DNA of 64,000 bases from Candidatus Kapaibacterium sp. (GCA_044224925.1 JBGAJM010000003.1:259855-323854); one strand, 5' to 3'. Shown: positions 31,348 through 36,600, numbered from the stretch's first letter. Numbers and translations: made by a program. Notes: a model not told the origin generated them from the letters alone.

Positions 31348-31440
31348 TCGAACCCCCTAGGAAGAAATCAGAAGAAGTGAAGGCGTAACATACTCATTGA
31401 GTGACAAGTGACAAGTGACAAGTGACAAGTGACGAGCTTC
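31348..31440 (-). promoter_or_regulatory. leader module A: (GTGACAA)x5 heptanucleotide tandem repeat (31401-31435) plus conserved 5' leader of the T9SS giant gene
   Basis: gtgacaagtgacaagtgacaagtgacaagtgacga; ~80% identical over ~100 bp to modules at 32.77 and 36.53 kb. Confidence 0.9.
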
Positions 31441-31839
31441 TCAATCTTCAATGGCCTCAATACCTAATTGCCGTAGGCGCTCAAGACCTTCTCGCATTGC
31501 CGTGAGCTGTTCAATGGTATGCCCCTGCCACACCGTGATCTCATCGATGATCCTGAGAGGGTGGGAGGAGCGATATGATCTTGTCGGGTTGCCAGGGAAC
31601 TTCTTGTCGGTTAGGTTTGGATCGTCTTCAAAATCACCCGTTGGCTCAACGACGAAGATCCTTTGTCTCCCATCACCAGATGCAAGCTCAGCACCCCAAA
31701 TGGCAGCATCGAGTGTCGCCGTGAAATACACGTACTTGGCCGTTCGACCTTGTCCGTAGTTAGACACATAGCCTGGTCCGATTAGGTCGCCGGTCCTCAA
31801 GTCTGCCTTTGTGCCGTGATAGTACTTCTCCTTGTCCAT
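31441..31839 (-). CDS. arr: Arr-family rifampin ADP-ribosyltransferase homolog
   Basis: 132 aa; YHGTKA, AIWGAELA, VVEPTGDFEDDPNLTDKKFPGNPTRSYR, PLRII...IED closely mirror the Arr-2/Arr-ms signature. Confidence 0.85.
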   Translation of the reverse strand: MDKEKYYHGTKADLRTGDLIGPGYVSNYGQGRTAKYVYFTATLDAAIWGAELASGDGRQRIFVVEPTGDFEDDPNLTDKKFPGNPTRSYRSSHPLRIIDEITVWQGHTIEQLTAMREGLERLRQLGIEAIED

Positions 31840-31869
31840 AGAATGTTCCTTTGTGTGAAATAGTACGGT

Positions 31870-32550
31870 TCATGAACCCGCCGAAGCAGATATGGTCGCC
31901 GTATCTCCGTCCAGTCGAACGAATTCAATTGATTCGCCAATGAAGTACGAGTCTCCAATGACGAGGAGGATCAGTTCGGGGATCGAAGAGTCGTTCGTGC
32001 CCGTGGTACGACGGGGCCTCCATCTTCCGACGATCGTCGGTTGTGCACCGGCACGATCAAGACATGCTTCATACAACTTCAACAAACGCTCCGGACCACT
32101 TGCATACAACCCCATATCAGTATCGACCGGAGGGAGAAAGCGAGCGAAGCTTGTAAAGAACTTGAAATCGTGAAAACCCTCGAGCTCTCGAACGTGGGTA
32201 TCCCATAGGTCCTTCAGGAATAGCTCAGGGGAACTCACTGCATGATTGAAGTAGAGTGAAACGTGATCGTCCACCATGGGCCACAAGAGCGGATGATCTG
32301 AGTAGAACTGAGGCCATTGTGCACTCGTGCCAGGCTTGTGAAGGCCATCACAGAATCCACCAATGACAATATTCCAATGCTGCTTTGTCGCATCAGCTTC
32401 GTTGCCTGTATCGAGAACGAAACTCACGCAAAGTCGCGCGTTGTCAAGCTGAGAAACCGACGTGATCGTGAGCCCTCCAAACTCCTCATACTTGAGGTCG
32501 TCGTAGGTCTCCTCGAGACTCGTCGGTAGGATGTCATCACGTTCCTTCAT
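31870..32550 (-). CDS. hypothetical 226-aa protein, no recognisable motif (partner of arr)
   Basis: clean ORF; start ATG overlaps the stop of the upstream small ORF (ATGA); 30 nt upstream of arr. Confidence 0.6.
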   Translation of the reverse strand: MKERDDILPTSLEETYDDLKYEEFGGLTITSVSQLDNARLCVSFVLDTGNEADATKQHWNIVIGGFCDGLHKPGTSAQWPQFYSDHPLLWPMVDDHVSLYFNHAVSSPELFLKDLWDTHVRELEGFHDFKFFTSFARFLPPVDTDMGLYASGPERLLKLYEACLDRAGAQPTIVGRWRPRRTTGTNDSSIPELILLVIGDSYFIGESIEFVRLDGDTATISASAGS

Positions 32551-32765
32551 GCTGTTCCTTGGTCGTCATTCACAACGAGGTTCGCCTTCTCTCGAGCGAC
32601 CCCGATCGTCGCAATGCTTCCGGAATTGAAGTGTAAGAAATCGGATTCGATGCCGTCCGAGAAGATCACGCCATGTGTCGGCATGAGTGATTCGACGGTC
32701 AGTGATGCTTGTCGAGAGAGCACACCGGCGGCCAGCCGGATCGAATGGTTCAATTGTACCCCCAA
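32547..32765 (-). CDS. small ~70-aa protein, family member 1 (TTG start)
   Basis: paralog of 36316..36522 (3 aa changes for ~9 nt changes); translationally coupled to the 226-aa gene. Confidence 0.55.
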   Translation of the reverse strand: MGVQLNHSIRLAAGVLSRQASLTVESLMPTHGVIFSDGIESDFLHFNSGSIATIGVAREKANLVVNDDQGTA

Positions 32766-32835
32766 CGAAGAGAACTGACCAAGTGGACGAGTAACATATT
32801 GATTGAGTCAAAAGTAACAAGTGACGAGTTGACTT
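32766..32835 (-). promoter_or_regulatory. leader module B with degenerate heptamer repeats (gtcaaaa gtaacaa gtgacga gttgac)
   Basis: shares the ATGTTAC core and 5' leader with modules A and C. Confidence 0.8.
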
Positions 32836-33344
32836 GCCGCGGCTACAGCCGGATCACGGGCTCGACCTCCCAGGTGAAGGGGAGGGAAAGAGAACTGAGT
32901 GTGCGAAGGGTTTGCAATTGGATCTTTCGACGAATTGGTACCAGACAGTCTGTCACAGGTTTCCCTTGAGCCACGATGACGGATCTCTTGACGAGGTCGT
33001 GGTCCTCGGACTCGAAGGTGCCGATTCTCCATATGAATGATACAAACGCCGCATTCGTTTGGGAAGAGCCGTTGCTAGCGTGCGTGAAGTGGTTGCTTGT
33101 TGTACCTTCGTCAATCTACTGGCATGAAGAGGAGCGACAAGGTCCTTGCCTACGAATACTGACTCACGGCGCGGAAATCGACATCAATGCCCTATGACAG
33201 GGTTCGTACAAGTTCAAGGCGATAGCATGGAATGTGCCGGCCGTATGGGTGAGATCGGAGATCCTGATATCGGCTTCAAACTCGCTGTATCAATCATTCC
33301 CTCCAACGACGATGTGGTAAATGTGATTGTGAGAGCATCGCATA

Positions 33345-34460: not shown

Positions 34461-34802
34461 AGTAGTTGCCTTTCCCTTCGATGCGTAATGGGATCAACAG
34501 TCCAGCAAGACAAAGGTCGCATTGTTGCTCCATTATAACGAGGAGTGCTTTGTTTCGAGAGATCCCAATCGTGGCAATTCTACAAGATTATTGCAAAAGT
34601 GAAACAGCAGCAGTGTGTTCATTCGATGTCGGTTGATGCCAAGACTCAACCAGTAGATCGAGCGCGCTACACAAAACTCTCGTCTAGACGGAGTCCTTGT
34701 CGTTATACGAACATACCGAACCGTCCGGCTTACAGCGAACGAAGTGCGAACTGTCCGTCAAAGTACTTGGTGAGTTGGTCTATGTGTATGCCGAGTCGCG
34801 GA

Positions 34803-35525
34803 TCACAAGAGAATCGGACCGGTCAAACTGTCCGTATCAACATACACGGATGATTGCCTTTGAGTAAAGAGTCGCCCACGACTTGCCGCAATTGCTTGCA
34901 GCTCACTGTTTGCAGAAGCGACTAGCCGCATAATACTGCTGCGCGAATCTTCCTCACAGACGTCAGAATAGACACGATCTGGTACGAGAAGCATAATGTG
35001 GTGTACAGATGACAGTGGAAAGCTGATACAATACTCCCGTGCGTACTTGTCGTAATGAAAGAGGTCTTCTAGCCCACTAAGTGAAAAAATCAGGATGCTG
35101 CCAGTCGAATTGAAAGAACAGGAAATGACTCTTCGTCTGGTGTCTACATGATGCAGGACAGACGTAAGAACGTTCGCACCATAATTCCATATGTAGAGAT
35201 CACCTCTGTTCTGGGAGCCGCCATCGTAGTCCCCAAGGCCAATTGCCAGTATCCTTTCAACAGGATGGAACGCTACATCAAGAACGGGAAGCTTCACGTT
35301 ATGAAAAGTGTTGACAAGTGCCAGAGAGTCAAGATCATACAGGATCAATGCGTGAGACGCGATGGTGTCCGTTGTAACGAGCGAAGAAGCGTCGTATGTG
35401 CTGGCAATTGCCACGAGACGTGCTTCTTCGGAAACGAATACACGATATGGCAATGACACTTCAGAAAACACGCTGCGTTTACGTGTAAAAAGCGATGTCG
35501 CCCTGGAAATGATCCGTTGTATCAT
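34803..35525 (-). CDS. hypothetical protein (WD40-like features)
   Basis: 240-aa ORF 12 nt downstream of the 233-aa gene; low GC. Confidence 0.5.
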   Translation of the reverse strand: MIQRIISRATSLFTRKRSVFSEVSLPYRVFVSEEARLVAIASTYDASSLVTTDTIASHALILYDLDSLALVNTFHNVKLPVLDVAFHPVERILAIGLGDYDGGSQNRGDLYIWNYGANVLTSVLHHVDTRRRVISCSFNSTGSILIFSLSGLEDLFHYDKYAREYCISFPLSSVHHIMLLVPDRVYSDVCEEDSRSSIMRLVASANSELQAIAASRGRLFTQRQSSVYVDTDSLTGPILL

Positions 35526-35537
35526 GGCGCGTGACTT

Positions 35538-36239
35538 CTACTCCAGCCATTCGATCGGCAGCCCGGTTGCCCTTTTGATCTCAGCCAACGTCTCTTCTGT
35601 TTCAAAACCTAACAATATTGTCTGATCGCCTGTATAGAGGCTCGTGAACCTGCCATTCGTGTTGTGCTCCACTGTGAGCTTTACGATGTTCTCAAACAGA
35701 GTCACGTCCACCCAGTCATCGTTGACATGCATCGTCCACCTATAGCGTTGGCCGTTGAAGATGAACGAAATCCAAGCGTCTCCGGAGTCGATGTCGACGT
35801 GATCAATGACGTCGGTGAATGTGAGTGCGCCTCTGCTGATTCGTTCAAGGTTCCGAATGATGTCCACATAGGCGCCATTATCCTCGATGGCCTCAGTGTC
35901 AAAACTCCAGCATCTGTTCGTGATCGGTGTAAAAGGTTCTCGCTCAATGCATGAACCCAACATCGTATATACGAGCATGAAAGGCTGTTCCTCGGCAGTA
36001 CTATCGTCGCGTTCCCAACTCGCAATGTCGGATGAGTCCACTTCTGGGTTCAAGTCGAAACGTAGTTGACGGAAGATCTCAAGTTGCTGGTCGAATGGTA
36101 CTTGCTGTCTGCCTCGAATTGATTGGGATCGGTCTTGTTCGTTGAACTGGCGAACGCCCCGTACAAAGATGCGCAGGACGATAATGAGTACGAAAATCGC
36201 AGAGACGATGCTTACAACCTTCATCCCATGTCCTCGCAA
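35538..36239 (-). CDS. hypothetical membrane-anchored protein
   Basis: N-terminal TM helix VVSIVSAIFVLIIVLRIFV; 233 aa. Confidence 0.5.
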   Translation of the reverse strand: MRGHGMKVVSIVSAIFVLIIVLRIFVRGVRQFNEQDRSQSIRGRQQVPFDQQLEIFRQLRFDLNPEVDSSDIASWERDDSTAEEQPFMLVYTMLGSCIEREPFTPITNRCWSFDTEAIEDNGAYVDIIRNLERISRGALTFTDVIDHVDIDSGDAWISFIFNGQRYRWTMHVNDDWVDVTLFENIVKLTVEHNTNGRFTSLYTGDQTILLGFETEETLAEIKRATGLPIEWLE

Positions 36240-36315
36240 CTATTGCATACGAATTCGCTGACCGAATACGTCGAATATACTGCACGTCGCTCTTCTAGCA
36301 TTGAGCAGTCTCGGC

Positions 36316-36522
36316 TCACGACTCATTCACAACGAGGTTCGCCTTCTCTCGAGCGATTCCGATCGTCGCGATGCTTCCGGAATTGAAGTGTAAGAAATCG
36401 GATTCGATGCCGTCCGAGAAGATCACGCCTTGTGTCGGCATGAGAGATTCGACGGTCAGTGATGCTTGTCGAGAGAGCACACCGGCGGCCAAACGGATCG
36501 ATTGGTTCAATTGTACGCCCAA
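36316..36522 (-). CDS. small ~68-aa protein, family member 2 (TTG start)
   Basis: ~95% nt identity to 32547..32770. Confidence 0.5.
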   Translation of the reverse strand: MGVQLNQSIRLAAGVLSRQASLTVESLMPTQGVIFSDGIESDFLHFNSGSIATIGIAREKANLVVNES

Positions 36523-36600
36523 CGAAGAGAACTGATGATGTGGTCACATAACATGCTAGTTGAGTGACAAGTTACGAGTGACGAGTTACGTGTTGAGTGC
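36523..36600 (-). promoter_or_regulatory. leader module C with degenerate heptamer repeats (gtgacaa gttacga gtgacga gttacgt gttgagt)
   Basis: 36564-36598; same leader as module B. Confidence 0.8.

Follow-up and report, generated by a model that had tools for sequence, protein, structure and literature searches.

We analysed a 64,000-nucleotide stretch of DNA from Candidatus Kapaibacterium sp. (GCA_044224925.1 JBGAJM010000003.1:259855-323854), hereafter the window, with positions counted from its first letter. Head-to-tail copies of the heptanucleotide TTGTCAC and its variants lie ahead of several genes in this window, including argD of the arg operon and the gene of a giant secreted protein. 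The tracts have the consensus TYGTMAC and are a heptanucleotide simple-sequence repeat. The giant gene (27727-31347, minus strand) encodes 1206 aa and is classified as a cargo gene of the type IX secretion system (T9SS). Its match to Por_Secre_tail scores 23.6 bits, which is below the cut-off of 27, and NCBI gives the name T9SS type A sorting domain protein to a protein in the same 90%-identity cluster. The GC profile delimits a low-GC variable island (31436-44745), which separates the giant-gene promoter from a PAP2 gene. The ArgD and giant proteins place the window in an uncultured Bacteroidota lineage, whose nearest named relatives are Candidatus Kapabacteria.

For comparison, we used orthologous loci from eleven other assemblies. 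L118 and L139 have 95% and 94% DNA identity to the window, respectively, L130 has 87-91%, and L140 has 86-92%. The loci L119-126 and L131-135 are ~81% identical to the window, and L127-129 are ~78% identical. L137/138 are short contigs that contain a small open reading frame (ORF) also found in the window and described below.

Heptanucleotide tracts in the window

The initial annotation had placed (TTGTCAC)n tracts at four loci, and both its positions and its orientations proved correct: all four tracts read in the sense direction of the downstream gene. The tract in the arg operon (21411-21440, plus strand), with the sequence CTCGTCAC(TTGTCAC)3T, had been described as flush against the argD ATG. 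This is indeed the case, and all 30 nt that separate the argC stop codon (21408-21410) from the argD ATG (21441) belong to the tract. The other three tracts are on the minus strand. Tract A (31401-31435), TCGTCAC(TTGTCAC)4, begins 5 nt past the stop codon of arr and ends 53 nt ahead of the giant-gene ATG (31347), and Tandem Repeats Finder (TRF) describes it as an array of period 7 with 4.9 copies and 100% match. Tract B (32807-32827) consists of three decayed units, TCGTCAC TTGTTAC TTTTGAC, and tract C (36564-36591) of four decayed units, ACGTAAC TCGTCAC TCGTAAC TTGTCAC. Perfect units, accompanied by one variant unit, number four at tract A and three at the argC-argD tract. TRF calls period 7 at three of the four sites, tract B being the one that is not called.

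The double unit, with at most 2 mismatches, has 9 matches in the window compared with 0.60 expected, and none of 100 shuffles gets to 9. The degenerate form TYGTMACTYGTMAC (TYGTMAC twice), with at most 1 mismatch, has 11 matches in the window compared with 0.28 expected. All four tracts are located within 15 kb, and no further tract was found in the 49 kb of the window outside 21-37 kb. The segments 31407-31436 and 21411-21440 are perfect inverted copies of each other over 30 nt, and they flank the 10-kb segment from argD to the giant gene. A repeat search of the window returned no local inverted partner for any of the tracts. The tracts had been counted as four separate loci, but only two of them are independent, the argC-argD tract and tract A, with tracts B and C being copies of the giant-gene segment.

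A duplicated leader module, chimeric small ORFs and the variable island

A conserved module had been proposed around tracts A, B and C, and this module is real. It forms a direct-repeat family of 104 nt, located at 31320-31423 (module A), 32726-32829 (module B, 80% identical to A) and 36483-36586 (module C, 75%). Modules B and C belong to a longer segment of 265 nt that the two sites have in common at 91% identity. Leader A (31348-31400, minus strand), which is kept in L130, L139 and L140, contains TCAATGAG and then a TATGTT box (31387-31392). Pyrimidine-rich sequence comes next, followed by GGGGG (31353-31357) and, ahead of the ATG, TTCGA. Leader B (32754-32806, minus strand), with its TATGTT box at 32793-32798, is a diverged copy of leader A (80%), and leader C (36511-36563, minus strand) has a CATGTT box at 36550-36555. 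All giant-gene orthologues contain a TA(T/A)GTT box 45-54 nt before the start codon, the motif GGGGGTTC, and the sequence ATGAAyCwTTCGATCCG at the start of the gene. These three features are still carried by L127 and L131, which are without a tract.

The distance from the end of the tract to the TATGTT or CATGTT box is exactly 8 nt in 7/7 module copies. At 16 nt ahead of the box, four copies have the hexamer TTGTCA, one has TTGTTA, and the remaining two have TCGTMA. In module A, the combination TTGTCA-16 nt-TATGTT scores as sigma-70-like (9/12), with such matches being no commoner in the region than in shuffles. Because the tract end is fixed at 8 nt from the box, units can come and go with no effect on the predicted -35/-10 spacing or on the leader, and the proposal that slippage changes the spacing of promoter elements is not supported. 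The tract is compatible with supplying a putative -35-like element that the tract-less orthologues lack. A mini-ORF had also been proposed to start at a conserved ATG in the leader, with a size range beginning at 9 codons. In module A, this mini-ORF has 7 codons. The orthologous box in L131-135 is TAAGTT, which contains no ATG, and since the ATG within TATGTT is not conserved, the mini-ORF is unlikely to be real. The supposed upstream ORF is more likely a predicted -10-like box.

We note several other observations on the leaders. RpoE-type and sigma-54 motifs were inspected by eye and were unconvincing. Whole-leader folding energies are no better than those of shuffles. A 7-bp hairpin, TCGAATG-AAC-CATTCGA (31335-31351, minus strand), encloses the giant-gene start codon and is predicted in the window, L131 and L140, and in L127 another stem (GGGGUUC/GAACC) lies over the corresponding ATG. 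A metagenome scan gave 0 matches for the module pattern, and for the leader/start pattern it returned only a contig already in the comparison set. An Rfam scan found nothing at the modules. At the gathering threshold, the sole Rfam match in the window is a cobalamin riboswitch (RF00174, 49911-50057, minus strand), with 32.7 bits against a gathering threshold of 31.5.

The ORFs behind modules B and C had been taken for paralogous small-protein genes that start 41 nt from their tracts. The start codons that match the ATG of module A are TTG at 32753 and 36510, which are 53 nt past the tract as in module A; the value of 41 nt came from an upstream in-frame TTG. Small ORF B (32547-32753, minus strand) consists of ~10 codons of the giant gene (L-NHSIRLAA) and the last ~55 codons of an NAD-kinase-like gene. 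Small ORF C (36316-36510, minus strand) is a paralogue of B. A total of 484 homologues of the small ORFs were found, and these almost always align through the C-terminal ~55 residues of longer proteins, typically ~340 aa in length and with weak NAD-kinase similarity. For example, ORF B has 67% identity to residues 289-342 of P0174, a protein of 344 aa. The DNA likeness to module A ends ~10 codons into the small ORF. Because the likeness stops at this point and the homologues match at their C-termini, B and C are in-frame fusions to a gene fragment, with the tract, box and leader as well as the opening codons coming from the giant gene, and the two ORFs are chimeras instead of small-protein genes. 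Four of the five differences between ORFs B and C are at third codon positions, and ORF B runs into the gene behind it, its stop codon overlapping the ATG there, which suggests that the frame may still be translated as a coupling leader.

Module B is followed by a cassette (31441-32550) within the island. The cassette contains a gene for a 226-aa protein (31870-32550, minus strand), the one that overlaps ORF B, and, as the last gene, arr (31441-31839, minus strand), which encodes a rifampin ADP-ribosyltransferase (Pfam Arr-ms, E = 1e-49). Modules B and C have unrelated genes downstream. In L137 there is one module copy, with a C-type upstream context; its leader is A-like, its start codon is ATG, and behind it lie the small ORF and then the 226-aa gene. 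Upstream of tract B is the remnant 3' end of an upstream gene (the B-flank, 32834-32998, minus strand), and blastn matched both L139 (9716-9936) and L140 (9710-9896) to window positions 32998-32780 at 77-88%. The cassette segment 31441-32550, like the small ORF ahead of it, is absent from L139 and L140, and the B-flank directly adjoins the giant-gene tract in these two loci. As far as can be read from sequence, the pattern is one of putative promoter-leader reuse with recombination between module copies. The modules resemble putative mobile promoters (PMC3488235, PMC3575422) in that one 5' segment of ~104 nt lies ahead of unrelated genes in one genome. They differ from mobile promoters in that the copy includes ~10 codons, makes in-frame chimeric ORFs, and carries a simple-sequence repeat.

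Tract A is located exactly at the island border, and GC content drops from ~0.58-0.60 to ~0.49-0.52 at 31-32 kb. The position of module A at this junction had been recognised before, and sister genomes confirm it, as they have PAP2 beside the giant gene or contain different islands. L131-135 have no island, PAP2 and the giant gene being direct neighbours there, and the island of L139 and L140 has other content. The gene next to the giant-gene promoter in L127 is a truncated glyoxalase-family gene (19340-19585), and a full glyoxalase-family gene is found in the window at 38568-39095, 7 kb upstream of the giant gene. The full gene 7 kb away in the window, compared with the abutting gene in L127, indicates that the intervening DNA was inserted in the lineage of the window. 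The sole mobility gene found in the island encodes a Mutator-family (IS256-like) transposase (41223-42515, plus strand), and the border of the island is not marked by a tRNA gene.

The initial annotation raised the possibility that the repeat is a recombination or attachment sequence. The tract or module would then mediate gain and loss of cassettes, or the inverted tracts would invert the 10-kb segment from argD to the giant gene. In addition to the border position of tract A, several observations agree with this explanation. Each cassette group in 31.4-36.6 kb starts with a module copy. The cassette of small ORF, 226-aa gene and arr lies between tracts B and A in the window, and L139 has two tandem tract blocks behind the B-flank. 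The single module copy of L137 links a C-type flank to a B-type cassette, and the upstream neighbour of the giant gene is a different one in each of three lineages. The 10-kb segment is flanked by the 30-nt perfect inverted repeat. Finally, both ends of L130, a 9-kb contig, stop inside tracts, which may be a sign of rearrangement or an assembly artefact. Nevertheless, we consider a dedicated recombination site very unlikely. No tract is present at the far (PAP2) border (44700-44760), and the arg-operon tract has no island. No integrase or invertase was found when 20 proteins from the island and its neighbourhood were scanned against Pfam, and the Mutator-family transposase is ~10 kb away. Duplication involved the module as a whole (104-265 nt), for which ordinary homologous recombination suffices. 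Gene order is identical in every assembly that spans both tract sites, and assembly can be expected to break contigs at repeats as an artefact.

Variation of the two repeat sites among related lineages

The number and arrangement of units ahead of the giant gene differ between lineages. There are five units in the window and at least four in L130, where the contig ends. L139 has two 4-unit blocks split by TCAA, which TRF describes as a 33-nt period with 97% match, and L140 has 4+1+3 units split by TTAA. No heptamer repeat is found before the giant gene in L127 or L131-135, which represent two sister species. At this position, L127 has no repeat, and L131-135 have a palindromic hairpin of an 11-mer, CCCGGCAGCnT, with L131 having one arm that is shorter by 11 nt. 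TRF arrays scoring >50 are confined to the argC-argD and giant-gene sites in the loci L139 and L140, each of 23.6 kb. Among sister-species strains of 98.6-99.8% identity, copy changes of the 11-nt repeat are the sole indels in alignments of 3-10 kb. The 11-mer occurs at three sites in the sister species, and its copy number varies by sample: it forms the palindrome upstream of the giant gene (L131 3400-3445), direct repeats in the argC-argD spacer (L119 4811-4868), and a terminator-like hairpin after argH (L119 10078-10125). The tracts had been described as slippage-prone, and their mutability is borne out at the between-strain level, by the unit numbers at the giant gene and by the spacer lengths at argC-argD given below. 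The variation in tract length is seen between lineages at 86-94% identity.

The variation brings to mind a phase-variable promoter switch, in which slippage would toggle or grade expression of the giant gene and the module-driven genes via promoter geometry, as for hmw1A/hmw2A. A perfect run of four units lies directly upstream of the giant T9SS-cargo gene, related assemblies differ in unit number and block structure, and the repeats of the sister species at the giant-gene site vary in copy number among near-identical strains. The precedent is the (ATCTTTC)n repeat of hmw1A/hmw2A in Haemophilus influenzae (PMC12721329, PMC8262952, PMC2424069), which is likewise a 7-nt head-to-tail array upstream of the gene of a very large secreted surface protein, and copy number differs from strain to strain in both systems. 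However, the hmw tract is located in the transcribed 5'-untranslated region and, paired with a G-rich arm, makes a hairpin that RNase III cleaves; the tract needs at least 11 units (PMC12721329). In contrast, the window tracts, which are known from sequence alone, have 3-8 units, are located upstream of a conserved -10-like box, have no complementary partner in the leader, and are predicted to be unstructured as RNA. With the proximal end of the tract 8 nt from the box in every module copy, a change in copy number shifts only the DNA further upstream. In addition, the tracts of L130, L139 and L140 mix different units and contain interruptions, which makes them less prone to slippage, and a tract is also present in the arg operon, for which phase variation would be of no obvious benefit. 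A phase switch at these tracts is therefore an unlikely explanation in our view.

The length of the argC-argD junction also varies between lineages (0-102 nt). Three unrelated repeat types are found there, and which of them a lineage has is not a matter of relatedness. The spacer of the window contains four heptamer units in 30 nt, and there is no spacer in L127, in which the two genes overlap as TAATG. L130 (91% DNA identity) also has four heptamer units, with the variants TCGTCAC TTGTCAC TCGTCAC TCGTAAC, which is a lower bound as the contig ends 7 nt upstream. The spacer of L139 is 73 nt long and contains six copies of (CCCGGCAkCTn), and a CT-rich 11-mer is found in L118 (58 nt) and L140 (102 nt; 88% DNA identity). 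The L119 group has spacers of 58 or 69 nt, with two or three copies of the CCCGGCA-type 11-mer of L139, followed by TTGTCAC GTTTTAC TTCTCAC TTCTCAC TTTCCTT. One economical reading is that the ancestral spacer was composite, like that of the L119 group, and that different seeds may have been expanded in each lineage. Exchange of alleles between strains is an alternative.

Folding of the spacers alone gave predicted minimum free energies of -1.1, -0.2, 0.0, 0.0 and -33.6 kcal/mol, where the first value is that of the window tract, predicted to be unstructured, and the last is that of L139. An RNA structure common to the spacer alleles is ruled out by this predicted range, and the lack of such a structure makes a sequence- or structure-specific function at argC-argD unlikely. 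An internal argD promoter inside the tract was also considered and rejected, since TATGCT, the one hexamer there that resembles a -10 element, extends into the start codon and has a 15-nt spacer.

A function of the tract as an RNA-level spacer might still be imagined, either as an S1-binding or Shine-Dalgarno-independent ribosome landing site for argD, or as an element of transcript stability or processing. The arg-operon tract is certainly transcribed, abuts the ATG, and has no Shine-Dalgarno sequence. Two of the three alternative spacer types are pyrimidine-rich and unstructured, as the predicted structure of the tract itself is, and the tracts begin 0-17 nt past the upstream stop codon at argC, at arr, in L139 and in L140. 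Across phyla, among the matches listed for at least 111 arrays, an ATG-ORF of at least 100 aa lies within 60 nt downstream of (TTGTCAC)n 24 times in sense and 10 times in antisense, a count that is biased by the stop codons which the antisense tract has in every frame. On the other hand, the L139 allele is strongly structured, L127 does without a spacer, and other genes in the window have GGAG-like Shine-Dalgarno motifs. Moreover, the giant-gene tract is upstream of the likely -10 box and may be outside the mRNA. We thus regard an RNA-level function as quite unlikely.

Related repeats and interpretation

According to the initial annotation, no element of this form had been described. Heptanucleotide repeats upstream of large adhesin genes are known from hmw (PMC12721329), and 7-bp repeats within operons are known from the short tandemly repeated repetitive (STRR) sequences (PMC2670836). 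The cyanobacterial STRR are intergenic 7-bp tandem repeats that are also found inside operons, for example between hupS and hupL (PMC2670836). The placement of the argC-argD tract is like that of an intra-operon STRR. The STRR units are CCCCAGT, TTGGTCA and CAACAGT, and, among the matches listed in our contig scan, cyanobacterial contigs contain (TTGTCAC)n beside other heptamer arrays. Unlike the window tracts, which occupy two independent loci in 64 kb of a Bacteroidota genome and have no hairpin potential, STRR are a high-copy, genome-wide family of filamentous cyanobacteria.

TTGTCAC is also present in elements of Pyrinomonadaceae/Blastocatellia that resemble repetitive extragenic palindromes (REP/REPIN) or miniature inverted-repeat transposable elements. 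These elements are intergenic and often located a short way ahead of a start codon. Their arrays are arranged as local inverted pairs, (GTGACAA)4-66 nt-(TTGTCAC)4, which are capable of long hairpins, whereas the window tracts have no such partner. Among the matches listed, the Acidobacteria-like contigs have one local inverted pair per intergenic gap; in L092, for example, such pairs are found in successive gaps at 3878-3999, 5345-5466 and 6214-6333, and others occur in L002, L015, L041, L087 and L107. Arrays of at least three TTGTCAC units were found in many phyla, among the matches listed in the contig scan. In viral contigs, (TTGTCAC)3 occurs in 16 stretches, compared with 54, 12 and 1 for composition-matched control heptamers. 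The idea that TTGTCAC is a specially favoured heptamer in bacteria or phages was rejected on this basis, as the controls range from 1 to 54 stretches. A literature search for the heptamer strings returned primer sequences only. We also note an intergenic tandem repeat of another kind in the window, (GAAGTAAAAGA) x4.3 at 63746-63793, which is purine-rich on the sense strand and sits between the stop codon of an ORF (63756) and the ATG (63800) of a lipoprotein-like gene (MKKIVLLIVLAAVVGC).

Taken together, these observations suggest that the tracts are probably a heptanucleotide simple-sequence repeat located at two intergenic hot spots, combined with duplication of a promoter-leader segment, and that slippage and conversion shape them with at most a quantitative effect on expression. 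The first hot spot lies ahead of the giant T9SS-cargo gene, in the gap that separates its conserved TATGTT box and leader from the stop codon of the upstream gene, and the second is the argC-argD intercistronic spacer. The B and C tracts belong to two diverged copies of a segment of ~110 nt, comprising tract, box, leader and ~10 codons, which arose by duplication and are joined in frame to the final ~55 codons of the NAD-kinase-like gene. The outcome amounts to putative promoter-leader reuse ahead of island genes, arr included. Replication slippage and unequal exchange may alter how many units there are and give rise to blocks of a higher order, like those of 33 nt in L139, and ectopic conversion between the inverted tracts 10 kb apart may keep them alike over 30 identical nt. 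Any effect on expression would be at most quantitative, as one TTGTCA, a -35-like hexamer, would be found 16 nt upstream of the box at any copy number. In the arg operon, the tract would act as an unstructured 30-nt spacer that parts cistrons which overlap (TAATG) in a sister species. The sequences directly show the repeat, its variation between strains, the duplication of the module and the chimeric ORFs, and from these we infer the slippage and conversion mechanism, the -35 role, and the lack of a sequence-specific function.

Several points weigh against this interpretation. Every tract, at all loci and in all strains, reads TYGTMAC on the sense strand of the downstream gene, and variant units differ almost only at positions 2 and 5, so that a GTNAC core is left. 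Some sequence constraint on GTNAC is therefore possible, with the reservation that slippage can spread variants and the individual events are not independent. The giant-gene tract is kept in four lineages down to ~86% identity, which either concerted evolution or selection can explain. The argument from geometry rests on the TATGTT box, which is a predicted promoter element. Length variation of the heptamer is known between lineages, and its genome distribution is known from the 64-kb window alone.

The retained GTNAC core and the constant orientation would also be expected of an array of regulator sites, in which a DNA-binding protein or an RNA-binding oligomer reads GTNAC every 7 nt and activates, represses, or is titrated by the array. 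The tract would, in addition, stand in for the poor -35 region of L127 and L131. Comparable arrangements include Pho boxes, which are direct repeats of CTGTCAT-type heptamers that replace the -35 element, and the binding of UAG triplets at 7-nt spacing by HutP. However, close relatives carry unrelated repeats or nothing at argC-argD, which leaves no conserved site, and a 7-bp period turns successive sites to different faces of the helix, compared with the 10-11 bp of known tandem-dimer regulators. The sole regulator-like gene nearby encodes a cyclic nucleotide monophosphate-binding protein (27144-27737). Such a protein is expected to bind a palindrome. Composition-matched heptamer arrays are also equally common elsewhere. 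We regard a regulator array as unlikely, and we prefer the interpretation of two simple-sequence hot spots with a duplicated leader segment.

There is a slight chance that the two hot spots are coupled by active copying or exchange and do not change by independent slippage. In several lineages, the same repeat family is found at both sites, 10 kb apart and inverted, and the repeat type at argC-argD is at odds with relatedness: both sites have the 7-mer in the window and L130, the 11-mer in the L119 species, which has it at the third site after argH as well, and a mixture in L139. Such coupling could be directed ectopic conversion, exchange of alleles between strains at a balanced polymorphic site, or an invertible segment from argD to the giant gene. 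If the coupling is true, the repeat alleles would be a tunable rheostat for the expression of the operon and the surface protein.

Our analysis defines no new class of element, and it resolves what seemed to be a four-fold dispersed element into two repeat hot spots and promoter-leader reuse. The annotation is corrected accordingly, with the two small-protein genes being chimeric gene remnants. The putative reuse sets island genes, including the rifampin ADP-ribosyltransferase gene, behind the leader of the giant T9SS-cargo gene. The spacer alleles at argC-argD, with lengths of 0, 30, 58, 69, 73 and 102 nt and three repeat chemistries, make up a natural series for the effects of intercistronic repeats on operon expression, which is the same question as that posed by the cyanobacterial STRR.

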